Below, piece after piece: positions 4,853-42,531 of a stretch of 64,000 bases of DNA. Each line of letters opens with the position of its first letter. Position 1 is the first letter of the stretch. The notes beneath the pieces are model-generated. The model did not search any database, was not told where the DNA came from, and saw only the letters and a list, made by a program, of their open reading frames with translations. The DNA comes from Alphaproteobacteria bacterium (GTDB lineage: Bacteria; Pseudomonadota; Alphaproteobacteria; UBA828): the NCBI GenBank assembly GCA_963422645.2, contig CAXXVO010000007.1, positions 640,001 through 704,000 of the forward strand, written 5' to 3'. A program made the position numbers and the translations under genes.

Positions 4853-5933
<1,081 letters not shown>

Positions 5934-5937
<4 letters not shown>

Positions 5938-6863
5938 TCGGCGCGTCGGCGAGCCGGGCGGCGGCGCTCGGCACCGCAACGGCAGAGCTGCGCGCGGCCG
6001 GCATCGATGCGCCGCGCCGCGATGCCCGCCTTCTGATGCAGCATGCGCTGGGACTCTCGCCCGAATCCTTGCTCGCGGACGACCGGCTGCCGCTCGGCGA
6101 GGACGAGGCCGGGCGGCTGACGGCGCTTGTCCACAGGCGCGCAGCGCGCGAGCCGATCGCCTATCTCACCGGCAGGCGCGAGTTCTGGAGCCTCGAGCTC
6201 GCCGTCGACCGGTCCGCGCTGGTGCCGCGGCCGGAGAGCGAGACCCTGGTCGAGGCGGTGCTGGACCGCGCCCCGCGCCTCCCCGCGCACCCGCGGCTGC
6301 TGGATCTCGGCACGGGCACGGGCTGCCTGCTGGTCGCGCTCCTGAGCGAGCTTCCCGGCGCGGTCGGGCTCGGTATCGATGTCAGCGCCGCTGCCGTCTC
6401 GCTGGCGCGGGCCAACGCGCGCCGCCACGGTCTCGGCGAGCGGGCTTCCTTCGCCGTTGCCGACTGGGGCGCAGCGCTCGCCGCTCGCTTCGATGTCGTG
6501 GTGAGCAATCCGCCTTATGTGGCGACGCCCGAGTTGGTATCGCTCGCGCCGGAGATCGCCCGCCACGAGCCGCGGACGGCGCTTGCCGGCGGGGCAGACG
6601 GGTACGAATGCTACCGGCGACTCGCGCCGCAAATTGCGCGACTCCTGGCATCGGGAGGACTGGCCGCAATCGAGCTTGGTGCGGGGATGGCGGATGAAGT
6701 CCGGTCGTTGTTTGCCGCTTCCGGACTCTTAGAGATCGGTCGTCGTCGCGACCTTTCCGGAATTGAGCGCTGCGCGCTCTTTGCCCGCGGTACCGATGTC
6801 GGAATCTGGTCCGAAGGGAGAAATTTCTTGCCCGCAAAACACGCCGGCTTGCAAAAAAGGTAA
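5934..6863 (+). CDS. prmC: Release factor glutamine methyltransferase PrmC/HemK; stop codon supplied by the IS66 end
   Basis: [18 protein letters not shown]; follows prfA; TAA 6861-6863 lies inside the IS terminus GTAAC. Confidence 0.93.
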
Positions 6864-8747
6864 CTGCCCAGGTTCTTGCTGTGAAAATTCTCTGGGATTC
6901 GGCACAACGCTACCCACGCGACGCCCGTGTGCTCCTCTGGGGTCGCCGGGTTTCACAGCTCACGATGCCCCTCTTGCGGACTGCGACCGGTAAGCTACCC
7001 CGATGTGGCCCGAAGTCCGCCCGCGCGACGGGCACCGATTTTCATTCTATGGGGTGGTCCAGCACGGCGTCGACCATGATCGTTTATGAGAATGGCTCCG
7101 CTGTTGGAGAACCCGTGCCAGGTGAGCTTACGCGCACTTGACGGTGGCGATGAGCCGATCCGATGGGCTGGTCAGGGCTTCGATGATATTCCAGCCCTGC
7201 TTTCTGGCGGTGGTGATGACGCTGCGCAGGATGGCGAAGTTCTCGGCCCCCTGCGCGGACCGGAAGCCCCCGGAGATCTTCTGGCGCAGCTTCATCATCC
7301 GAAGGTCGCGCTCGGCCTCGTTGTTCGTGAACCCGACCTCGAGGTCGATCAGGAACCGGAGCACCGCGCATTTGTGGTCGCGCAGCCTCAAGGCCAGATT
7401 GTGACCGATCCTTCGCTTCCGGCGCTTCTTCCTCTTGCCAGGCGAGAACGGTGGTTGGCTCTCGTGAAAGGCCAGCGCATCGGCGATGATCTCGTCGTAT
7501 CGGCGCTCGATCAGCGCCACAAGCCTCGCCGGAACGGCGATATCCTTGTCCAGCGCGATGCGGGCGGCGCGATTGGCTCGGCGCAGGAGCTGCTGCATCC
7601 GCCGGGCCCAAGCCTCCCCTTCGATGTCCACCAGCGCCTGCAACTCCCGCAGGTGATGGGCGTTGCACAGGCCGTGCTCCACCCCTTCCATCGCGAAGTA
7701 CGGCTTCCAGTGATCGTGCACGACGATGCCGGAGACACCCGAGAGCAGGGCGCCGCGCTTGCCGCTGACCCGGTACGCCGCCAGCAGCGGCGTGCAGATC
7801 ACATGAAGCCACTGCGTCTGACCGCCGATCCGCAAGCCGGTCTCGTCCATGTGTTTCACCCGCGCCGTGCCCGCCGCCAGGTCCTGTATGTGCAAGGCCG
7901 CGTCCCGCAGCCGCTCGGCCGCCCTCTCGCTCATCGTCGCCAACGTCGCAGCCGTCACCGGCGCGCCGAAGAGCTCGGCCATCACCTGCGACAGCCGATC
8001 CTCCGGCAGGAAGTGAGCGTGCTGAAGGTAGACCGCCACCCCGGCAATGCGCGGGCCGTACTGCACCGGCGCCGACACCCCGTCGGGGAACGCCGCCCGG
8101 GTCACCGTCCCGCAATGCCCGCAGCACTTGGCATGCGCCCGGTGCTCGGTCACCTCCAGGGGGCTCGGCTCGGGCAGATCGAACACCTGGCGGGCGACGG
8201 GCGTTCCCGCCCTGGCCGCGTCCGAAAGCGGCGAACCGCATCCCTTGCAGGAAGCCGGGACGTGATCCTTCACCCGATCCGGGTGATCGGCGCGGCGCAG
8301 CGTCTTGCCCTTGTGGCCGGGCTGGCCACCGGGCTTGCGGCCCGATTTGCCGCGCAGGCTTCGGGTTCGCCGCTTCGAATTCGGCTTCCTCAGCCCATCG
8401 CTCGAAGGCGGCTTGCCGCTGTTGCCGCTGTTGAGGCCGAGACGGCGCTCCAACTCCTCGATGCGCTCGACGAGACGCGCGACTTGCTCTTCCAGCCGCG
8501 CGTTCTGCTGCCGAAGCCAGGCATTTTCCTCCCGAAGCCGGGCGTTCTCCTCCTCCAGGCGGGCGATCTTCTGCGCGGGCGTTTCGGGCGCTGCTCCCGT
8601 CGAAGGGCCGCGCGGCGACTCGGGATTGCTCATGTCGTTGTTGAGTCATTTCCCGAAATTCCCGTCAAGCCCTTTCCACCAACTCCGAACGAGAAACGCC
8701 TCAATCCACTGGCCCAAAATGACAAATCAGACGACCTGGGCAGTTAC
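6860..8747 (-). mobile_element. IS66-family (single-ORF, ISBst12-like) element, copy 1, 1888 bp
   Basis: Terminal IR GTAACTGCCCAGGT at both ends; 8-bp TSD CAAAAAAG (6852-6859 and 8748-8755). Confidence 0.95.
7128..8633 (-). CDS. IS66 transposase TnpC
   Basis: Leucine-zipper N-term, NSGKPPSSD, GGQPGHKG, zinc finger, DETG, HDHW, CNAHHLREL, TNNEAERDLR. Confidence 0.95.
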   Translation of the reverse strand: MSNPESPRGPSTGAAPETPAQKIARLEEENARLREENAWLRQQNARLEEQVARLVERIEELERRLGLNSGNSGKPPSSDGLRKPNSKRRTRSLRGKSGRKPGGQPGHKGKTLRRADHPDRVKDHVPASCKGCGSPLSDAARAGTPVARQVFDLPEPSPLEVTEHRAHAKCCGHCGTVTRAAFPDGVSAPVQYGPRIAGVAVYLQHAHFLPEDRLSQVMAELFGAPVTAATLATMSERAAERLRDAALHIQDLAAGTARVKHMDETGLRIGGQTQWLHVICTPLLAAYRVSGKRGALLSGVSGIVVHDHWKPYFAMEGVEHGLCNAHHLRELQALVDIEGEAWARRMQQLLRRANRAARIALDKDIAVPARLVALIERRYDEIIADALAFHESQPPFSPGKRKKRRKRRIGHNLALRLRDHKCAVLRFLIDLEVGFTNNEAERDLRMMKLRQKISGGFRSAQGAENFAILRSVITTARKQGWNIIEALTSPSDRLIATVKCA

Positions 8748-12714: not shown

Positions 12715-14602
12715 GTAACTGCCCAGGTTCTTGCTGTGAAAATTCTCTGGGATTCGGCACAACGCTACCCACGCGACGCCCGTGTGCTCCTCTGGGGTCG
12801 CCGGGTTTCACAGCTCACGATGCCCCTCTTGCGGACTGCGACCGGTAAGCTACCCCGATGTGGCCCGAAGTCCGCCCGCGCGACGGGCACCGATTTTCAT
12901 TCTATGGGGTGGTCCAGCACGGCGTCGACCATGATCGTTTATGAGAATGGCTCCGCTGTTGGAGAACCCGTGCCAGGTGAGCTTACGCGCACTTGACGGT
13001 GGCGATGAGCCGATCCGATGGGCTGGTCAGGGCTTCGATGATATTCCAGCCCTGCTTTCTGGCGGTGGTGATGACGCTGCGCAGGATGGCGAAGTTCTCG
13101 GCCCCCTGCGCGGACCGGAAGCCCCCGGAGATCTTCTGGCGCAGCTTCATCATCCGAAGGTCGCGCTCGGCCTCGTTGTTCGTGAACCCGACCTCGAGGT
13201 CGATCAGGAACCGGAGCACCGCGCATTTGTGGTCGCGCAGCCTCAAGGCCAGATTGTGACCGATCCTTCGCTTCCGGCGCTTCTTCCTCTTGCCAGGCGA
13301 GAACGGTGGTTGGCTCTCGTGAAAGGCCAGCGCATCGGCGATGATCTCGTCGTATCGGCGCTCGATCAGCGCCACAAGCCTCGCCGGAACGGCGATATCC
13401 TTGTCCAGCGCGATGCGGGCGGCGCGATTGGCTCGGCGCAGGAGCTGCTGCATCCGCCGGGCCCAAGCCTCCCCTTCGATGTCCACCAGCGCCTGCAACT
13501 CCCGCAGGTGATGGGCGTTGCACAGGCCGTGCTCCACCCCTTCCATCGCGAAGTACGGCTTCCAGTGATCGTGCACGACGATGCCGGAGACACCCGAGAG
13601 CAGGGCGCCGCGCTTGCCGCTGACCCGGTACGCCGCCAGCAGCGGCGTGCAGATCACATGAAGCCACTGCGTCTGACCGCCGATCCGCAAGCCGGTCTCG
13701 TCCATGTGTTTCACCCGCGCCGTGCCCGCCGCCAGGTCCTGTATGTGCAAGGCCGCGTCCCGCAGCCGCTCGGCCGCCCTCTCGCTCATCGTCGCCAACG
13801 TCGCAGCCGTCACCGGCGCGCCGAAGAGCTCGGCCATCACCTGCGACAGCCGATCCTCCGGCAGGAAGTGAGCGTGCTGAAGGTAGACCGCCACCCCGGC
13901 AATGCGCGGGCCGTACTGCACCGGCGCCGACACCCCGTCGGGGAACGCCGCCCGGGTCACCGTCCCGCAATGCCCGCAGCACTTGGCATGCGCCCGGTGC
14001 TCGGTCACCTCCAGGGGGCTCGGCTCGGGCAGATCGAACACCTGGCGGGCGACGGGCGTTCCCGCCCTGGCCGCGTCCGAAAGCGGCGAACCGCATCCCT
14101 TGCAGGAAGCCGGGACGTGATCCTTCACCCGATCCGGGTGATCGGCGCGGCGCAGCGTCTTGCCCTTGTGGCCGGGCTGGCCACCGGGCTTGCGGCCCGA
14201 TTTGCCGCGCAGGCTTCGGGTTCGCCGCTTCGAATTCGGCTTCCTCAGCCCATCGCTCGAAGGCGGCTTGCCGCTGTTGCCGCTGTTGAGGCCGAGACGG
14301 CGCTCCAACTCCTCGATGCGCTCGACGAGACGCGCGACTTGCTCTTCCAGCCGCGCGTTCTGCTGCCGAAGCCAGGCATTTTCCTCCCGAAGCCGGGCGT
14401 TCTCCTCCTCCAGGCGGGCGATCTTCTGCGCGGGCGTTTCGGGCGCTGCTCCCGTCGAAGGGCCGCGCGGCGACTCGGGATTGCTCATGTCGTTGTTGAG
14501 TCATTTCCCGAAATTCCCGTCAAGCCCTTTCCACCAACTCCGAACGAGAAACGCCTCAATCCACTGGCCCAAAATGACAAATCAGACGACCTGGGCAGTT
14601 AC
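12715..14602 (-). mobile_element. IS66-family element, copy 2, 1888 bp (apparently identical to copy 1)
   Basis: Same IRs; own 8-bp TSD AAATTGTC (12707-12714 and 14603-14610). Confidence 0.95.
12983..14488 (-). CDS. IS66 transposase TnpC
   Basis: Translation identical to 7128..8633. Confidence 0.95.
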   Translation of the reverse strand: MSNPESPRGPSTGAAPETPAQKIARLEEENARLREENAWLRQQNARLEEQVARLVERIEELERRLGLNSGNSGKPPSSDGLRKPNSKRRTRSLRGKSGRKPGGQPGHKGKTLRRADHPDRVKDHVPASCKGCGSPLSDAARAGTPVARQVFDLPEPSPLEVTEHRAHAKCCGHCGTVTRAAFPDGVSAPVQYGPRIAGVAVYLQHAHFLPEDRLSQVMAELFGAPVTAATLATMSERAAERLRDAALHIQDLAAGTARVKHMDETGLRIGGQTQWLHVICTPLLAAYRVSGKRGALLSGVSGIVVHDHWKPYFAMEGVEHGLCNAHHLRELQALVDIEGEAWARRMQQLLRRANRAARIALDKDIAVPARLVALIERRYDEIIADALAFHESQPPFSPGKRKKRRKRRIGHNLALRLRDHKCAVLRFLIDLEVGFTNNEAERDLRMMKLRQKISGGFRSAQGAENFAILRSVITTARKQGWNIIEALTSPSDRLIATVKCA

Positions 14603-28553: not shown

Positions 28554-31111
28554 CAGAACTCCTGACATGGTGCAATTTCAAATGGCGGAAAGAGCCGGGG
28601 GCTGGAAGACGAATCGGAGTTGCGTTCCCGGATAGAGGTGCGATTCGGCGGTGAGATTTTCGCAGAGATGAGCGAGAGCGCGGTTGAATCGCGGGTTGGC
28701 CATGGAGTGGAAGCGGAGGATGAGTATCTGTCGTTCGGGTCGCGGGATCATGTCGGCCGGAAGCTGGTAGACCGCCTTGAGGAAAGTGCGGCCCTCCTCG
28801 GCATCGCGCATGAACAGCGGTGCGATCATGGGCAGCATCGCACTCTCGGCGCGGTATGCGATCATGCGGATCAGGTCGGTGAAGCGCTTGCGTCGATCTC
28901 GAGACGAACGATGTCCGCCTCGTCCATCACGGTCTTGGCCGACACCTTCTTCGGCAAGGCTCTCTTCCCGGCCCGGATCTCCTTGAGGATACGGTCGAAC
29001 TCGCCGATCCATTCCCTGATGTCCGGCAGGTCCGGATCGCTCGGCTTCCGGTCGCGCAGTTCGCCGTAGCGAATGCGAAGCTTGTCGAGCGCCTTCTTCA
29101 CGATCTTCCGGCTTTTCTCCAGAGCCTTGATCTGAGGATTTGCCATCGGGCGGTCGGGGTCTGCGGCTTCTGCGGCATAGCTGCACCGATGGTCGAGGGC
29201 GTATTCCTGGCGCATGTATTTGAAGTAGTTCTCCTGCCGCCATCGCGCGAACATCCGGGCGGCGACGGCGCCGGTCGACAGGTCGGTGCGCGTGGTCACG
29301 ATCGAGGTCTGGTGGCCGTTGTCGCATAGCCTGCGAACTTCGCGCACTGTCAGAGAGTCACCGCCCCCGGTGCTGAGCGCGAGCGGCTTTTCGGCCAGCT
29401 TCCAGGTCATCGGCTTGCCTGCCTTCTGCCGGCCGCTCGGATCGACAACGGTGACGAAGTCCTGCTGTGGCCAGGGGGCGTAGCGACCCTTGCGATAGGT
29501 CATGATGTCGAAGCCGGCGATCGACCAGCGCTGGAAGGCAGCCGGGCTCCAGGCGCCGCGATCGAACACCACGGTCGGCCGCGGCCCGGCGCCGACCTCG
29601 TCGCGGATTTTCGGGAGAACCGCGTTCTCAAGCATCGACAGCAGGTCGTCATTGGCTTCGGCGGTGACGAAGAACCAGGGCTGCGCCTGCGCGTCGTTCA
29701 CCCAGGTATCGGAGGTCGCCGGCATGCACAGCCGACGCTGCGGCGACCAGGTCTTCGGGATCTTGTACTTGCGGCCATGATAGGGCCGGACATGGCCGTC
29801 GACATAGAGATAGCCCAGCGCCTCGGGGCGCGCCCAACGCCGGGCCAGCGCATCGGCGAAGTGGCGCGCCTTGCCCATGGCGCCGATTTCCGCGAGCTTG
29901 CGGCGCAAGGTCTTCACCTCCGGCGCGCGGTCGAGGCCGAGCAGCAGGCCGAGTTCGCCCGGCGCATGGGCTTTGAGCTGCTCCGGCGTGCGTATCCGCA
30001 GCAGCGCCATGAAGGTGAGCAACAACAGCACGCTGCACAGACCGAAGAAGCCCTTCTTGAGATGGCCGTAGGCTTGCTCGCCGGCCGCGAACAGGCCCTG
30101 ATCCAGCACCGCCGGCAGCGCCAGCAGCACACCGGCTCCCGGCACCGCTTCCGCCGCCTGCACCTGCATCGGCGCCTCCGTCAGGCGGCCGGCCATCGCC
30201 AGAGTCCGTTCCTCAATCCGCTTGACGGCAACACCGGCGCTGCACTGCGCATCCGCCGCCGAACGCAGCGACGGTCCCGGCCCGGTCTCCAGGATGCCCT
30301 GTGGGAGCGACAACGATACCGGCGCTTCCGTTCGCTGAGCGCCCGGCGCCGGTGCAGCTGCAACCGAACCCTGCGCCGGCCCGGCACCCTTGCCTCCTCG
30401 CGCCGTCCGCTTGCCCGGCCGCACCAGCTTGCCGGTCTTGATCGCCGCCCTGACGCACCCTTCCGAGACCCCGACGGCACGCCCTGTTGCCGACACGCTC
30501 GCACCTGCGTCGAGCAGCTCCTGTGCCAGGGTGAGCTCGGCCCCGGCCAGCTTGTATCCTTTTCTTGGACGCGGCTTCGCGATGAGCGCCTCCAGCCCAC
30601 CGTCGAGATACTTGTCACGATTGCGCCGGACGGTCTGCCCGCTGACACCCATCGCCCTTGCCAGAGCTTCGGCTGAGACCAGACGCTGTGCAGTGAGCAT
30701 CGCCATTGCGTGGCGTTTCCCGAGGGCATCGTCTTCGGCATAGGTGAAGATCGGGCCCGCGCTGTTGAAAAAGACGACCCTTCCGTCCTCTTCGACCATT
30801 GCGAGCGTCTCGGAGATGACGATGGCGTTTTCCGGCCACAGCGGAAACTGAAGCTGCATCGGCTATGTTCCTGAACCGCGTTGTGCCCCTTTGCCGCGCA
30901 TTGTAAGCGAGTTCGGCTGCTCACTACGAGGCCCCTTTACAGCGCCCATATCATTGACATTAGTTGGAATACCCTGCTATTCTGACCGCTTCTTTCTGCC
31001 GCTCGTCCCGCATCTTTTCGCCTCAACACTTGACATTACGAAGGTCGGCCGGCGGTTCCCAAAACATTCTCAATGATTCAATCACTTACCAGCGTAATGT
31101 CAGGAGTTCTG
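28554..31111 (-). mobile_element. IS of a poorly classified DDE family (element A), 2558 bp
   Basis: Perfect 15-bp IR CAGAACTCCTGACAT; flanking direct repeat AATTT (28549-28553 and 31112-31116). Confidence 0.85.
28578..30859 (-). pseudogene. Large HTH-DDE transposase with -1 frameshift near 28890 (possibly an assembly error)
   Basis: Motifs YVDGH, VFDRG, RWRQENYFKY; C-terminal part (DLIRMIAYRAE, YPGT.LR) continues in another frame. Confidence 0.75.
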
Positions 31112-31634
31112 AATTTCGGTCAGACGCAAGATATGCTCATCAGCGACTATCAGTCCTTGTGAGGCAATCCGTCGACGAACGAGAGCCAAATACGCTTTGT
31201 CGGTACAAGCTCCGGCAATCATCGCGCGGGAAGCCCGTGCCGCATACCACAAACGATATGGTAACGATAGGTAGCATTATTTTAGTGCTGCGCAACAAAT
31301 CTCCGCCGTGACATCGTTTTTCATGAAACAGGCTAGGCTGTCGAAATCATAGACTCACCAACCGGCTATGGCGCACCCCGAGGCTCTTGCTGTGTCGTCA
31401 GCGTCAGTCACGTGACAGCGCGAAAGTTTTGCTAACAGAACGTCCTCGTTGCCGGAATTCTGGATGCATTGAGTTGTTATCCTGGAAATATCGTAACTAC
31501 CCAGGTACCCCAATCCTGAGTTGAGGACGGTGATTATGGCGGCGGCCGCGGTCTGGTTCTGCCACCGCGATTGGTTCTTGACCTCATAGAGTTGCGGGAC
31601 TATGGACTGCTCTCTCGCGTGACGGGAGCGGTCC

Positions 31635-32303
31635 ATGGGGTATTTCGGCTCGAAGGCGACAGCAGGTCTGTGCCAAGCGCTGATTGCGCTGATGCCGCCG
31701 CACTCCGTCTACATCGAAAGCCACCTTGGGGGCGGGGCGCTGACGAAGCGCAAGCCGCCGGCCGTGCGTTCGATCGGCATCGACCGCGATGCGCAGGCGC
31801 TCGAGGCCTTCGTCTGCGACTACCCGGTCGATCTGGTTCACGGCTGTGCCCATGACTTCCTGGCCTCGTTCCCGTTCCTGGGCCCGGAGCTGGTTTACAG
31901 CGATCCGCCCTATCTGCACGCGACCCGCCGCTCGGCGCAGCGCTACCGCTTCGAGTACGAGGAGGCCGGCCACGTCGCGCTTCTCGAACTGCTCAAGGCT
32001 CTGCCCTGCCAGGTCATGATCTCGGGCCATCCGTCGGCGCTCTATGACGAGGTGCTGGCGGGATGGCGCCGGCTGGCGCTGCAGGTCACGACCCAGGGTC
32101 TGGTGCGAACCGAGGTCGTCTGGTTCAACTACGCCCCCGACCGGATGCATTGGGCCAGCCACGCAGGCCGGAACTTCACCGACCGCCAGCGCATCAAGCG
32201 CAAGGCAGCCAACTGGGGCCGGCGCTACCAGGCCATGCCGGCGGGCGAACGCCTGGCGGTGCTGGCCGCGATCATGGCCGTCGAGGCCGACGAGGGTTCG
32301 TGA
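31635..32303 (+). CDS. Compact N6-adenine DNA methyltransferase (Dam/D12-like) inside an IS66 end
   Basis: Motif X GYFGSK, motif I YIESHLGGG, motif II GIDRD, catalytic DPPY, MISGH, motif VIII TEVVWFNY; GGGAG RBS. Confidence 0.85.
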   Translation: MGYFGSKATAGLCQALIALMPPHSVYIESHLGGGALTKRKPPAVRSIGIDRDAQALEAFVCDYPVDLVHGCAHDFLASFPFLGPELVYSDPPYLHATRRSAQRYRFEYEEAGHVALLELLKALPCQVMISGHPSALYDEVLAGWRRLALQVTTQGLVRTEVVWFNYAPDRMHWASHAGRNFTDRQRIKRKAANWGRRYQAMPAGERLAVLAAIMAVEADEGS

Positions 32304-32606
32304 CAGTGTCGCGCTGGCACGAGGACCTCGCTGCCCACGACGAGGCCTTCGCGTGCCTGCAGGACCTTTTCACCCCACAATCCTTCGCAATGACCGCCGT
32401 CAAAGCCATTCGGGAATGGGGCCAGAGGTTGCTGCGCCTGAGCGCGGCCCTGGTCAAGGAGAACGACGCGCTGGAGCGGGAGAACGCCCGCTTGCGCGAG
32501 CGGATCGCCGAACTCGAGCGCAGCGCCGCGCTCGACAGCACCACCAGCTCCAAGCCGCCGGCCAGCGACGGTCTGAAGAAGAAGAGCGGTGACCGGGAGA
32601 AGCGCA
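32300..32606 (+). pseudogene. IS66 transposase N-terminal fragment coupled to the methyltransferase
   Basis: GTG start overlaps MTase TGA (GTGA); ENARLRERIAELER..LDSTTSSKPPASDGLKK resembles TnpC at 7128..8633; broken at the fold-back junction. Confidence 0.8.
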
Positions 32607-33038
32607 CCATCCCGCCAGCACCTCGTCATAGAGCGCCGACGGATGGCCCGAGATCATGACCTGGCAGGGCAGAGCCTTGAGCAGCGCGAGAAGCGCGACG
32701 TGGCCGGCCTCCTCGTACTCGAAGCGGTAGCGCTGCGCCGAGCGGCGGGTCGCGTGCAGATAGGGCGGATCGCTGTAAACCAGCTCCGGGCCCAGGAACG
32801 GGAACGAGGCCAGGAAGTCATGGGCACAGCCGTGAACCAGATCGACCGGGTAGTCGCAGACGAAGGCCTCGAGCGCCTGCGCATCGCGGTCGATGCCGAT
32901 CGAACGCACGGCCGGCGGCTTGCGCTTCATCAGCGCCCCGCCCCCAAGGTGGCTTTCGATGTAGACGGAGTGCGGCGGCATCAGCGCAATCAGCGCTTGG
33001 CACAGACCTGCTGTCGCCTTCGAGCCGAAATACCCCAT
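32607..33038 (-). pseudogene. Truncated second copy of the adenine methyltransferase
   Basis: Same N-terminal ~144 codons with two amino-acid differences (T/M, E/A), cut after DEVLAGW. Confidence 0.85.
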
Positions 33039-33324
33039 GGACCGCTCCCGTCACGCGAGAGAGCAGTCCATAGTCCCGCAACTCTATGAGGTCAAGAACC
33101 AATCGCGGTGGCAGAACCAGGCCGCGGCCGCCGCCATAATCACCGTCCTCAACTCAGGATTGGGGTACCTGGGTAGTTACGATTTATTGAGACAAAGTGA
33201 GAGTCCGCGGGAGAGGTGCGGGCCAGGACCGCGGCACGCACCTCGTCGTAGCGGCTCCCCTGGACCGCGCGCCTTGGTTAGGATGCGCCCCGCGTAACCC
33301 CGATTCCCGCCGAGCGAACGCCCG

Positions 33325-34921: not shown

Positions 34922-35156
34922 GTAACTGCCCAGGTACCCCCTCTCTCTTATGGAACAAGCCAGTTCCTTTTGCGTCAACGCCCCCACGCCGCGGGGGTGC
35001 CTACTCTCTTGAGCGCGAGAGGATGATGAACGCCGCGTCGCGAACAAGATGAGAGGACAGCGATACTCAGGATGAGCCGGAGAAGTTCAGGAGCGCAGTA
35101 TAGGGATCAGCTGCATCGGTTCCGGGTGCGCCAGGATTTGCAGGATGTTCCAGCCT
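34922..35156 (-). mobile_element. IS66 right-end remnant with last codons of a transposase
   Basis: Terminus GTAACTGCCCAGGTACCCC at 34922; 35087-35155 (-) encodes GWNILQILAHPEPMQLIPILRS*, like the TnpC tail GWNIIEAL. Confidence 0.8.
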
Positions 35157-37515
35157 CAGACTTCCTGACCTCTGCTGATTTTAGGTGACACGAGCCGCGC
35201 GGATTCCGAGGCCCCGTCGATGTCGTAGACTATGCGCAGACGGGTGCCGGGGAAGACCGTTTCGGTGGCGTTCAGGTCGCTCAGAACCGCATCGATCCAA
35301 CGGTCGCAGGCGTCGTTTGCGAGGCCAAGAATGTGGACCCGCAGGAGGCCATTGCCAGGATCCGGCAGGATGTCGGCATCGGCGGTGAGCAGCGCTTGAA
35401 GCAGTTTCCGGGGATGGGGCTTGTGGCCCTGCGCCTGCATGACGGGAAGCATCATGCGGGTTTCGGCGCGGTAGGCGATCATCCGGATGACGTCGAGGAG
35501 GAGGCGCTCGCGCGCGGGCAAGGCATCGAGCTGCTCGGCTTCGTCGAGGTCGCCGGCCCGGCAGTGCTTGGGCGTCTCCCTGCGGCTGGCCCTGACGATG
35601 TCGCGGACATCCTGGAGGTCCCTGACTTCCCTCCTGAGTTCCGCCGTCGGCTGCTTCTTCCGGGCCGTGTCGGCGATGCGGTTGCGCAGGCGGCCAAGCT
35701 GGCGGTCGAGGCGATGGATTGCCTTGTCATAGGCCCGCCGCAGCGGGTTGACGACCATGGCGGCGGGATCGAGAGGCTCGAGCTCGTGGGTCGGCAGGGC
35801 GTCGAGATTGAACTCGTCACGCATGTACTTGAAGAAGTTCTCCTGCGACCAGCGCGAGAACATGGCGCCCGCAACCTCAGCCATCGGCTTGTGCGGATCG
35901 GTGGTGATCAGCGGCACCTGACGGCCGTTGTCGAGCAGGCGGCGGATCTGGCGCACCCTGAAGCCGTTCGGCAACGTCACCGGCTTCTCAGCCAGCCGCA
36001 TGGTGGCGCTGCCGTCCGCCGCCGGTCCGTGAATGGGAACGGTCATCGCGCCGAAGTCCTCGGCCGGCCAGTCCTCGCCCCTGAAGTTCTTGTGCCAGGT
36101 CAGGCAGGCGACGCCGCGCCTCGCCAGCCGGCGGAACAGATCCGGGCTCCAGCCCTCGCGGTCGAAGACCAGGGTGAGCGCCGGCTGGCCGGGATGCTCG
36201 GCGGTCAGGTCCGGCGCCCCGGCGCCAACGATCCCAAGCTCCTGCAGCGCCGGCACCACGTCGGCTTCGATGGCCGCGACCATCTTCGGGTCCAGCGGCT
36301 TGTGCAGACAGAGCAGCGGCTTGCCGCCCAGAGCGTTGATCCAGTAGCTGGCGCTCGCCGGCAGGCACAGCTTCTCGCGCGAGACGAAGTGCTTGGGCAA
36401 GCGCCCCTTGCGGCCGGAGTAGACCTTGACGTGCCCGTCGATGGCCAGCGTCGCCCAGAGCTCCGGCTCGTCGGCGCCTGCCAGCGCCTGGCAAGGGCGA
36501 GCTGCCACGCCCGCACGCCGGCCTCGTCGTCGGCGATGAGAGCGATCTTGCGGCGCAGCGTCTTGACCTCGGGGCAGCGATCGAGGCCGAGAATGGCGCC
36601 CCATTCGCCCGGCGCCTGGTAGCGCAGGCTCTCGGGGTTGCGCACCCGCGCCAAGGTCATGAAGGCCAGGAAGAGCAGGATCGTAGGCAAGCCGTAATAG
36701 CCCTTCGGCAGCAATGGCAGGAGACCGGTCTCGGAGAGAAGACCTTCCTTCAGCAGGGCCGGCAGGGCGGCGAGCACGCCGCCGAAGCGGACACCGCGGG
36801 CGGCGGCGGCGAACTGCGGTTCGACCGGCCCCGCCTGTCCACAACTGGCCAGAACCCGAGCCGGAACATCGCAAGTCGCACGCCCCATCGGCGCCTGCCG
36901 GTCCCGCCGATCGCGCGCGCTGCGATCCGTTTGCGGCTGCGCTTCCAGCCCCGGCGCCGTCTCCGGCCCCGGGGCACCGGTACTCTCTTCATCGACACGG
37001 CCTTCAGGAGCCGCACCCGCGTCAGGCGGCGCAGCCAGCGCTGAGCGTCCGGGCTCCCCATCCGCCTCCGTGTTGCCGATCAGTCCCTGACGGCGCCACT
37101 TGTTGACCGATGGCGCTGACACGCCGAGAACCCGGGCCGCCGCAGAGCCGCTCAGGCCCGATGCCAGCAACGCCGTCGCCTTCTCCGCCAACTCCGGAGT
37201 GAACACCGACGGCCCGCGACCGCGCCGGGGCTTCATGAACCCCGCTTCGCCCTCGGCCAGGTAGCGCCGTCGTGCGCGCTGCACCGTCGCGCGCGAGACA
37301 GCGAAAGCGTCAGCCAGTTCCTGCGGCGAGACCGCGCTGATCGCCGCGAGGCGGCCGATCCGCAAGAGCATGGCCGTGCGGTCATCGGCGGCGTGGCTGT
37401 CAAAGGGAATGAGGTTGGAAAAGTAGGTGAAGGTGTCGTCCGAGATCAGGACGGCGAAGCAGCTGTTGCCGATCGAGACCGCCTCTGGAGGGCACATTGG
37501 GAGGGTACTGGGCAT
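35156..37515 (-). pseudogene. Large HTH-DDE transposase with -1 frameshift near 36475 (possibly an assembly error)
   Basis: LGLDRCPEVKTLRRK, IDGHVKVY, VFDREG, RWSQENFFKY, IRMIAYRAE; homologous to element A. Confidence 0.75.
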
Positions 37516-37669
37516 GGTTGAGACCGTGCAATTGGTATCAAATTATACTATCAGACCTCGGGCGCGACACCCAGCGAAAAACCGCCTGAAACAACCGAAA
37601 TGTATCAGAATTCAAGGAGTTCCCGGCACGCTGCCCAGAACAGCCAGCATCACGAGGTCAGGAAGTCTG
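35157..37669 (-). mobile_element. IS of the same poorly classified DDE family (element B), 2513 bp
   Basis: 16-bp IR CAGACTTCCTGACCTC; flanks AGCCT / AAGCT do not form a TSD. Confidence 0.82.
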
Positions 37670-37810
37670 AAGCTATAGCGATTCCATCGAGAATGAGGTG
37701 GACGATTTCTCCAGCAGCGCCGAAGGGCTAGACACGGAGCTGATGACGTTCGCAGAAATTGCTACAGATCACTTGGAATTCGACCGCGGGTATTATGTGT
37801 CTTTGCGAAA

Positions 37811-38839
37811 GGCTCAATTCGCAAAACGTAGGCGCGGTCTGGCCATCGCCGCCTCGAGGCACGCTCTGGGCGATGGCTGACCGCCGAGTTCGATGAGATG
37901 GAACCACCTCAGATAGCTGTCCAGGTACTTGGTGGCGATGCCGCGGAAGCCGCGCAGGAAGCCCTTGATCTGGCTGTGGCGGCTATTGACCGTCTGGATG
38001 TGCAGCGCGCCCCGGACCCGCTCGTCAGCAGAAGCGTTGATGCTCTCGTGAGGGATGTCGAGCGCCGCCGCGACGGGCGGATAGCAGCGCTTGGCGTCGG
38101 AGACGAGCAGCGCATCCGCTGCGACGACCGGCTCCAGCACCTCCTTCACGCTCTTTGCGTTGAGGGCGGGCAGGCTATGGCTGAGGGTCTCGCCCGCACG
38201 GTCGGCGGCGACCAGGATCGGCACCTGCTCGCGCGAGAGGCCGCGTTTGCGGGCCTTGCCGCCGCGACGGCGCGGCTTGCGATCCAGCTTCCGCTCCCCC
38301 TTGCGGCTCTCGAGAACGAAGGTCTCGTCGGCCTCGACAATCCCGGCAAGCCGGTCCGGCGCTTGCCGAACCGCCGCCAGGAAGCGGTGGCGCCAGCGAT
38401 GCGCCGTGCTCGGCGCAATCCCGCAGCGCTCGGCGGACTCCTTGATCGTCTCGCCCTCGGCAAGCGAGGCGCCGAAGGCCAGCCAGCGCTCCTTGTGGTG
38501 CAGCCCTGACAGCGCCGTGCCCGTGAGTGCACCGAAGGTCTTCCCGCAGTCCTTGCACCGGAAGCGGCGAAGACCTCGCGCCTTGCCCCGCGACACCGCC
38601 CCGCCTGCGCCGCAATGCGGACAGCGCCGCTCGTCATCCACGCCCAGCTCGATCGCCGCCAGCGAGGCCGCGCCCTCCGGAGGCTCCGACAGCACCGCCC
38701 CGACCTCCTTGCGCTGCGCCGCCGTCAACTCATCGACACGCGAGAACCACTCCCGAAACCGCTCGTGATCCATCTGCCTGACCTCCAAGGCGAACCGGGA
38801 AAGATTCTATCACAATGCATACGATTCACGAATTGCGCC
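37811..38839 (-). mobile_element. IS1595-family element, 1029 bp
   Basis: IR GGC(T/G)CAATTCG; 8-bp TSD TTGCGAAA (37803-37810 and 38840-38847). Confidence 0.9.
37814..38773 (-). CDS. IS1595 transposase
   Basis: CPHC..CKDC zinc ribbon, VEADETF, LVSD, HIQTVNS, GIATKYLDSYL. Confidence 0.9.
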   Translation of the reverse strand: MDHERFREWFSRVDELTAAQRKEVGAVLSEPPEGAASLAAIELGVDDERRCPHCGAGGAVSRGKARGLRRFRCKDCGKTFGALTGTALSGLHHKERWLAFGASLAEGETIKESAERCGIAPSTAHRWRHRFLAAVRQAPDRLAGIVEADETFVLESRKGERKLDRKPRRRGGKARKRGLSREQVPILVAADRAGETLSHSLPALNAKSVKEVLEPVVAADALLVSDAKRCYPPVAAALDIPHESINASADERVRGALHIQTVNSRHSQIKGFLRGFRGIATKYLDSYLRWFHLIELGGQPSPRACLEAAMARPRLRFAN

Positions 38840-39044: not shown

Positions 39045-40058
39045 TCAGCGTACAGAGGAATAAGCTGAGCTTCTTTGGCTTCCTCGACGAAGTTTTTTCG
39101 TAAGGCACATATCACTGAGCGGCCAGGCAATCAGGTCTTCGTACCTCAGTCTCTTCCCGATCATGCCCCGCACCAGCGCGGCCATCTGGTCGATGGTGTC
39201 CAGGTCGCGGATGTTGTTCCGGCCCGTGAACTCCCGAACGTAGCGATCCAGGTGCTTCTCGGACAGATGGTGGAATGTGCCGTGGTAGCCCCTCTTGAAG
39301 AGCGACCAGAAGGATTCGATGCCATTGGTGTGCACGTCGTCGCGGACATATTCGCCGCGCGAATGCACGACGCTCTCATGATGGGGCAGGCCTGAATAGC
39401 TCTTGGACTCGTCGGTGTAGACCATAGCGTCAGGCGCGGCCTGCGCTGCGACGAAGTTGCTCAAGGTGAGCCGGGTAGTATCTGGCACCACTTCGGCAGA
39501 GACGCGCTTGGTGGCGCGGTCCTTGGCGCCCGCGACGACGGCCTTGCCAACCCCGCCACGACCCGCACGCAGCTTCTTGTTGGCGTGCTTGTTCTTCTCC
39601 TTGCCCCCGATGTACGTCTCGTCCGCCTCGACCGGGCCAGGGAAGGGCTTGTTCTCGCCTTCGATGAAGCCCTCGCGGATGCGCTGCATCAGGAACCATG
39701 CGGTGGCCTGGCGGATGCCGACCTCGCGATAGAGCTTCATACTGGACGTACCCTTGATGCCCGTGGTCATCATGTAGAGCGCGATGGCCCACTTCTGGAG
39801 CCCGAGCTTGCTGGACTGCATGACCGTGCCCTTGCGGACGGAGAAGTGATGCCGGCAGTCCCGGCAGCGGTAGGGCATGGGCTTCCGGCTCGCGACGGCC
39901 ACCGTGTTGGTTGAGCCGCAATCGGGGCAGAACCGGCCTTTGGGCCAGCGCTGCTGTTCAAACCACGTCTCAGCAGCAGCATCGTCGGGGAACTGGCGTA
40001 GCAGCTCCATGACCGTCATGCCTGAGCGGTGGGAGCGTCCCGGTGCCTTCTGTGTCAT
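39045..40058 (-). CDS. Second IS1595-family transposase (C-terminus reads through)
   Basis: CPDC..CRDC, VEADETYIGGK, YTDE, HTNGIESFW, KHLDRY; the usual RL.Y.DLIA end is followed by TGG instead of a stop. Confidence 0.88.
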   Translation of the reverse strand: MTQKAPGRSHRSGMTVMELLRQFPDDAAAETWFEQQRWPKGRFCPDCGSTNTVAVASRKPMPYRCRDCRHHFSVRKGTVMQSSKLGLQKWAIALYMMTTGIKGTSSMKLYREVGIRQATAWFLMQRIREGFIEGENKPFPGPVEADETYIGGKEKNKHANKKLRAGRGGVGKAVVAGAKDRATKRVSAEVVPDTTRLTLSNFVAAQAAPDAMVYTDESKSYSGLPHHESVVHSRGEYVRDDVHTNGIESFWSLFKRGYHGTFHHLSEKHLDRYVREFTGRNNIRDLDTIDQMAALVRGMIGKRLRYEDLIAWPLSDMCLTKKLRRGSQRSSAYSSVR

Positions 40059-40125
40059 GCCAGCCTCCAATCTTGGCTAGTATAGTGTCATAAATGTGTG
40101 GGGCCGTCAATGACGAAATGGCTAG

Positions 40126-41742: not shown

Positions 41743-42418
41743 CTAGTTAGGCGTATAAGCCCCAAGAATTTGATCCGAGGCAAGAAGTGCCAGCATCAGG
41801 GCTAGCGGTCGTGAGCTCCGCCTCTTTGTCGAACAGCCTCCCCTGGAGTATCCATTCAGTCAGGCCGTAGAGTCGGCCGGCCCGCGGGTGCGCCCGAAAC
41901 GAACAGCCGACCTGTTTCATGCCACAGGGGCCGATCACTGCCTCCGCCCAACCAGAATCACGGCCAGACCGAACGCATACATGTCAGCAGCCGTCAGACA
42001 CGCGCACCGCTTCAATTTCCGGTGCACGCCAATCGTTTGCCAGCCAAGACAAGGCGTGGCTCACACGGGACTGGCGACCTCGAAATATCCCTGTATCCCT
42101 GCCGGTTTCTTGAATTGCGGGATCGGCTGCCCCGTGCGCGGCCTTCAGATTGGGCATCAGAGAGTAAATCCTTGAATCAGACGGCGGTGAACGCGAGATT
42201 TCGACCACAGACACCCACGCTGTATGTCTGACTTTTTGACAAGCCTCATTGGATACACGCTAACCCATTTGTCAGTTTCGACAATGATGGGTTAGCATTA
42301 GAGTCTGATCCAGACTTGGTGTTGTCAGGCGCTTGTAGACCACGGTTATCGGCACATGATAGGCCAGATCAACAATTCACATTCCCTCAAGCGCTAGATG
42401 TCGGTCGGTGCTTAGGTT

Positions 42419-42531
42419 CAGACTTCCTGGCCTCGTGATGCTGGCTGTTCTGGGCAGCGTGCCGGGAACTCCTTGAATTCTGATACATTTCGGTTGTTTC
42501 AGGCGGTTTTTCGCTGGGTGTCGCGCCCGAG
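42419..42531 (+). mobile_element. Left-end fragment of another copy of element B, truncated at IS21
   Basis: 113 bp inverted near-identical copy of 37557-37669 (one visible mismatch). Confidence 0.85.

Follow-up and report, generated by a model that had tools for sequence, protein, structure and literature searches.

A conserved promoter and the gene for a small Dam-like protein together form a portable cassette that has moved between transposon families. The cassette heads five transposase lineages (at least three within IS66, together with DDE_5 and UPF0236), always in the same orientation, and we lean towards the view that it represses itself and drives expression of the transposase that follows it. 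The 64,000-nucleotide stretch of alphaproteobacterial DNA analysed here (the window) contains three dead fragments of a two-gene IS66-family element with this cassette. Neither copy A nor copy B is whole, and one of the fragments, copy A, retains an intact small gene and its promoter. The features are given below in window coordinates.

31493-31511, plus strand: tip of the left inverted repeat (IRL) of copy A, which the left ends of 20 complete elements match fully or almost fully
31578-31606, plus strand: conserved cassette promoter, with -35 TTGAC, ATAG at 31586-31589 and CTAT at 31600-31603 overlapping the -10
31635-32303, plus strand: small gene, an intact 222-aa Dam-like (Upf31-like) ORF with DPPY at residues 90-93
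32300-32606, plus strand: 5' fragment of tnpC (IS66 transposase), about 102 codons, Pfam DUF6444, 97% identical to related locus L003
32607-33038, minus strand: copy B, 5' fragment of the small gene (residues 1-144), head-to-head with copy A
33067-33095, minus strand: promoter and inverted-repeat site of copy B, the mirror of 31578-31606 within the 580-nt arms
33162-33180, minus strand: left terminal inverted repeat of copy B
34922-35156, minus strand: third relic, with a right end and then the final ~21 codons of a tnpC from this clade, truncated at 35156, the end of a Transposase_29 ORF
6860-8747, minus strand: 1888-bp tnpC-only IS66 without the cassette, with a perfect 8-bp duplication
12715-14602, minus strand: second, identical copy of the 1888-bp IS66, with a perfect 8-bp duplication

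The anatomy of copy A is as the earlier note had described it: 142 bp separate the IS66-type end from the start of an intact 222-aa ORF with a DPPY motif, and the TGA of this ORF (32301-32303) overlaps the GTG of the tnpC fragment at 32300. The first 14 to 19 nt from 31493 are the same as the left ends of complete elements at related loci. The tnpC frame is 97% identical to residues 1-103 of the L003 transposase, and its Pfam match, DUF6444, is the N-terminal domain in these IS66 transposases. Copy A breaks off within tnpC, at about 32606, and its match to complete elements stops at element position ~1108. Copy B is inverted, running backwards from 33180 to 32607, and retains the small protein only up to residue 144. 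The two inverted arms (31490-32069 and 32604-33183) are 580 nt each and differ at five positions; they are therefore two copies and not one folded back, and the adjacent second copy that had been reported is real. The head-to-head junction between them could be an assembly artefact.

Copies A and B are neighboured by two Transposase_29 genes, a homoserine kinase and an RNase H, and restriction genes, previously said to be missing nearby, were found neither in the window neighbourhood nor inside complete elements. The Transposase_29 (PF21804) genes, at 28871-30859 and 35156-37515 and both in minus orientation, border the region on either side; one has an intact reading frame of 662 aa, and the other is broken into two frames that overlap. 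Transposases of the cassette-bearing clade share 56-59% identity with that of the 1888-bp IS. A PrmC-like methyltransferase ORF (5934-6863; PF17827, PF05175) ends within the first four bases of the 1888-bp IS, and since the IS starts at 6860, the IS end provides the stop codon of this ORF. The palindrome GGTACC, proposed to distinguish the termini of the cassette-bearing type, does occur at 31493, 33180 and 34922 and not in the 1888-bp IS, but it is not conserved at both ends. We discarded the idea that it serves as a target at each end, because relatives lack it in their right ends and vary at this place in their left ends (GGTACT in L009 and L013; GGTGCT in L011).

To look for complete copies, we used 50 related loci from a scan that took one genome per species, all of them in metagenome-assembled genomes (MAGs). 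An IS66 transposase lies directly downstream of the small gene, on the same strand, in 34 of the 50 loci, with L006 and L039, both among the 34, representing the same pair of copies, and several MAGs carry many copies per chromosome. Both ends were located for 20 distinct elements of the window-type clade, which range from 2267 to 2607 bp; one more window-type copy is interrupted (5197 bp). Target duplications were scored on these complete relatives, each window fragment keeping a single end: 8-bp duplications are perfect in 13 of the 20, a 9-bp repeat is present in one and six have none. Full-length copies with inverted repeats around the small gene and tnpC and with 8-bp duplications, for which the earlier note had suggested a search, thus exist in many genomes. 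The complete elements, of 2267-2461 bp where their gene content was assessed, contain just two genes, the small gene and tnpC, with neither tnpA nor tnpB. Their downstream protein matches PF03050 (DDE_Tnp_IS66; E 1e-38 to 1e-31) and mostly DUF6444 too.

The termini of the window-type relatives begin GTAACT. Because there is no tnpA or tnpB, the termini begin GTAACT and the duplications are of 8 bp, the window-type element matches the single-ORF ISBst12 group within IS66. It shares with that group (for example ISDge4) a lone DDE_Tnp_IS66 transposase, the GTAACT termini and the 8-bp duplications, and is set apart from it by an additional promoter and gene located after the left end and ahead of tnpC. 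ISDge4 is described as a single-ORF member of the ISBst12 group of the IS66 family in the excerpted text of PMC12898284.

The remaining 8 of the 50 loci comprise one copy interrupted by an IS630-like element (L015), one non-IS context (L029) and six fragments. We do not count L015 as a case of an IS630 element bearing the cassette, since the IS630-like element there sits after the gene and has 32-nt inverted repeats of its own. In L029 (5676-8086), no transposase follows the cassette; in its place come a gene of the Ogg-HhH glycosylase type and one for a PfkB/nucleoside deoxyribosyltransferase fusion, possibly as part of an island for DNA modification.

Accessory or passenger genes have been known in other IS elements. 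In the literature that we searched, no description of an IS66 element with this gene was found, and in the excerpted text of PMC9296519 the IS66 content is limited to counts. The stretch from left inverted repeat through small gene to tnpC had no match covering at least 80% of its length among 72,556 plasmid records and zero matches in E. coli complete genomes.

The cassette is also found on transposons of other families. The small gene heads a 2.54-kb DDE_5 element in seven loci (L024, L025, L031-34, and L037); the ends of this element are unlike the IS66 type, its duplications are 5 bp, and the ATG of its transposase overlaps the small-gene stop. Two DDE_5 copies on one MAG chromosome (L031 and L034) have swapped 5-bp flanks, in that the sequence to the left of one recurs to the right of its partner, a pattern to be expected if the copies had recombined or an inversion had taken place between them. 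In one locus, L030, 23-nt inverted repeats surround the small gene and a UPF0236 transposase in a 2431-bp element. The IS66 carriers themselves fall into at least three deeply divergent transposase lineages with differing termini, the window-type transposase being ~29% identical to clade B and ~26% to L023. The description of an IS66 element that carries a methyltransferase gene can therefore be kept in that the gene is integral and has been propagated in relatives, but the window copies are fragments and the cassette is also carried by DDE_5 and UPF0236 elements.

Small proteins of clade B and of the L023 lineage are 68-72% identical to the window protein, and small proteins are 63-93% identical where the matching transposases share just 25-58%. 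The comparison of methyltransferase and TnpC trees that had been proposed was run, and the two trees disagree: in L047, the small gene falls in the window-type clade (98/93) and tnpC in clade B (100/100). Across the IS66, DDE_5, and UPF0236 contexts, the small-gene stop and the transposase start overlap or lie within a few bases of each other. The apparent translational coupling read from the window sequence thus recurs as a stop/start overlap or few-base gap in most contexts.

The small protein belongs to a large family related to Dam. Pfam gives nothing at its cut-off for the window protein (PF02086 at 12.5 bits against a cut-off of 22, E 0.12), a cut-off that some family members reach, and residues 85-150 match TIGR00571 (dam) with E 1.5e-4 at 21.6 bits, below the curated 114.85. 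Among 4285 candidates, 3692 proteins belong to the family at E <= 1e-3, and the best 120 of these 3692 are 69-96% identical and 209-264 aa long; in a 50%-identity library, 8553, 4679, and 1129 clusters are found at E <= 1e-3, 1e-10, and 1e-30, respectively. The N-terminal GxK, motif I (residues 31-34), motif II, and DPPY (90-93) are invariant in alignments of 31 and 11 sequences.

The AlphaFold model (pLDDT 84.6, pTM 0.83) has a Rossmann-type core and ends in two C-terminal helices (181-200 and 203-219). The model has no recognition-domain insert between motif III and DPPY (strand 66-69 to strand 85-89), the point at which some longer relatives do have an insert (two matched stretches). The tight motif packing and missing recognition domain described previously are thus borne out, motif I to DPPY spanning ~60 residues. 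The best Foldseek matches in the PDB are E. coli Dam (E 5.6e-7, TM 0.57 on query) and then DpnM, and the RNA methyltransferases RsmD and MnmM are also returned with slightly weaker E-values. On this model, the predicted fold is that of Dam minus its recognition domain. The C-terminal half is homologous to that of E. coli Dam and DpnM (D12 class, PF02086; TIGR00571 E 1.5e-4, 2dpm E 0.0011), whereas the small protein is ~60 residues shorter, has no inserted recognition domain and does not reach either curated cut-off. A sequence profile search of the PDB placed two designed TPR-like proteins first (E 2e-6) and DpnM third; the designed proteins align over a single 49-residue helical stretch and were treated as spurious. 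Prediction of a homodimer of the small protein gave a median score of 0.29 against a mark of 0.42, which we take as evidence on neither side of the question of binding. Among relatives below 60% identity are 197 plasmid records, 134 of them conjugative, and 79 phage records, including P2-like phages, and in some relatives a C5 methyltransferase domain is fused on, as it is in real phage methylases.

Pairwise dN/dS is 0.07-0.37 for the small gene and 0.19-0.52 for tnpC. The small gene is under purifying selection and is not decaying as a family, which answers the question of neutral evolution raised by the earlier note. Since neither the SAM-binding motif nor DPPY varies and purifying selection acts on both, catalysis is probably retained. 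The small gene is frameshifted in 8 of the 20 complete window-type elements. In L016-18 and L040-41, it is frameshifted next to an intact tnpC and fresh duplications, and this spread of frameshifted copies indicates that the protein is dispensable in cis. L016, L017, and L018 share a +1 frameshift at ~5095-5100, in the G run that encodes motif I. This shared frameshift is either inherited or a homopolymer error, and the frameshifts of L016-18 and L040-41 could be long-read homopolymer errors.

The promoter of the cassette is conserved together with the gene. The -35 TTGAC, a spacer ATAG and, ten bases on, its complement CTAT, which overlaps the -10, are kept within the 60 bp upstream of the small gene in all contexts, on the basis of an alignment of 16 upstream regions. 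When bases were counted position by position over 28 distinct segments, two spacer positions never varied while neighbouring spacer positions were near random, and the four-base half-sites paired in 21-25 of the 28. Each element has exactly one promoter-type site; we considered extra sites of this type at the IS ends and rejected them, as none are there. In L021, a consensus scanner found the cassette promoter (TTGACA, 17 nt, TATGCT) as the sole promoter-like site, and it made no call in the window copy, where the last T of the -10 is missing. In the alignment of window-type left ends, a short hairpin with compensatory changes (31610-31630 and relatives) can be seen by eye over the ribosome-binding site of the small gene.

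Of the relatives that have been studied, the closest is Upf31 of IncP-1beta plasmids (upf31.0; pBP136, R751), which is 45% identical over 220 residues, the full length, with all motifs. The two proteins share their length, the N-terminal GxK, motif I, motif II, DPPY, and a C-terminal two-helix tail. Their promoters are also alike, with the pBP136 repeat unit abutting the -35 where IS cassettes have CA-N-CATAG, although the Upf31 half-site is one base off the commonest IS form. In contrast to the IS cassette, Upf31 is a plasmid backbone gene with no transposase after it, and its proposed contact with KorB has no counterpart in the IS. According to excerpts of the Upf31 study (Mol Biol Evol 2025;42:msaf062) and its preprint, the protein strongly represses its own promoter. 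The excerpted text of msaf062 also gives inverted CAGCATCG repeats as the likely operator, models the C-terminal part as a dimerisation domain, reports that no GATC methylation was detected and that Upf31 expressed from the vector alone in methylase-free E. coli gave no SMRT signal, and raises RNA as a possible substrate.

Complete copies read from a left end through a single promoter to the gene for the ~220-aa Dam-derived protein and an overlapping or abutting tnpC. By this anatomy in relatives, the small gene supplies tnpC transcription and, probably, translational coupling too. By homology to Upf31, the protein may bind its own promoter at the overlapping inverted repeat and repress it, a negative feedback that would keep transposase expression low. 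We consider this self-repressing cassette somewhat probable. Against it, Upf31 is just 45% identical, and pure repression does not explain the invariant catalytic motifs. The C5-methylase fusions, the spread of frameshifted copies, the failure of the scanner to call the window promoter and the restriction of the loci to MAGs also count against it.

The invariant catalytic motifs argue for methylation, and the Upf31 tests argue that the target is rare or is not bulk DNA. Both would be accommodated, though we regard this as an unlikely extension, if the protein acted as an epigenetic switch that binds the promoter repeat and methylates its adenines, transposase transcription being released briefly after replication while the repeat is hemimethylated. 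So rare a target would explain why Upf31 was silent in SMRT data in the absence of its plasmid. Dam control of IS10, IS50, and IS903 shares the idea that expression is coupled to replication through adenine methylation of the transposase promoter. In that control, a host enzyme methylates GATC sites. The element described here instead carries its own Dam-like gene, whose methylation activity is putative. A switch of this kind, if true, would make IS10/IS50-type Dam control portable to any host and would explain the repeated capture of the cassette by unrelated IS families. Replication-linked control of transposase promoters by adenine methylation is cited in the excerpted text of PMC9296519.

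The same catalytic motifs, with their purifying selection, are consistent with an active orphan N6-adenine DNA methyltransferase of short or relaxed specificity that marks host or carrier DNA, for anti-restriction or methylome change, and that the IS merely spreads. The presence of relatives on conjugative plasmids (134 of 197 records) and in P2-like phages, the usual places for anti-restriction methylases, and the fusion of some to C5 methylases point the same way. However, the usual recognition domain is missing, and Upf31, in the excerpted study, showed neither GATC methylation nor a SMRT signal in methylase-free E. coli. Anti-restriction would also leave unexplained the fixed place and orientation before five transposases and the conserved promoter repeat. 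We therefore regard an orphan methylase as doubtful.

Less probable still is a plain passenger with no role in transposition, whose constant position would mark the place where a small IS tolerates cargo. Copies with a broken gene have still transposed, and the cassette-free 1888-bp IS has been active in the same window, where its two copies each have a duplication. The cassette nevertheless holds the sole promoter-like site found in L021, its stop overlaps or nearly abuts the transposase start in IS66, DDE_5, and UPF0236 contexts, its orientation is constant, and it has been captured repeatedly by unrelated transposases. Methylation of a non-DNA substrate, such as RNA or protein, is very improbable: it would fit the negative DNA result for Upf31 in the excerpted study despite intact motifs, and the appearance of RsmD and MnmM in the Foldseek list at slightly weaker E-values than the top, but the best matches are DNA adenine methylases and DPPY is typical of amino-methyltransferases acting on DNA.

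How IS elements hold transposase levels down in hosts without Dam is poorly understood, and regulation in the IS66 family is almost unstudied. The self-repressing cassette favoured here is a concrete, small and testable system in which to approach this, and its distribution indicates that regulatory or epigenetic modules can pass between transposon families. It also connects Upf31, a plasmid protein that has been hard to explain, with a far bigger family (1129 clusters at E <= 1e-30). If the protein were an operator-specific methylase, it would represent a new kind of mobile epigenetic switch.

Other repeats were observed elsewhere in the window. Inverted repeats of 119 nt at 37557-37675 and 42413-42531 are 98% complementary and enclose two IS1595-type transposase genes (37814-38788 and 39045-40070) together with further ORFs; this region may be a composite or nested element. 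Between 51489 and 54994 lie diverged direct repeats of 166-300 nt (families D2 and D3) that are 73-77% identical.
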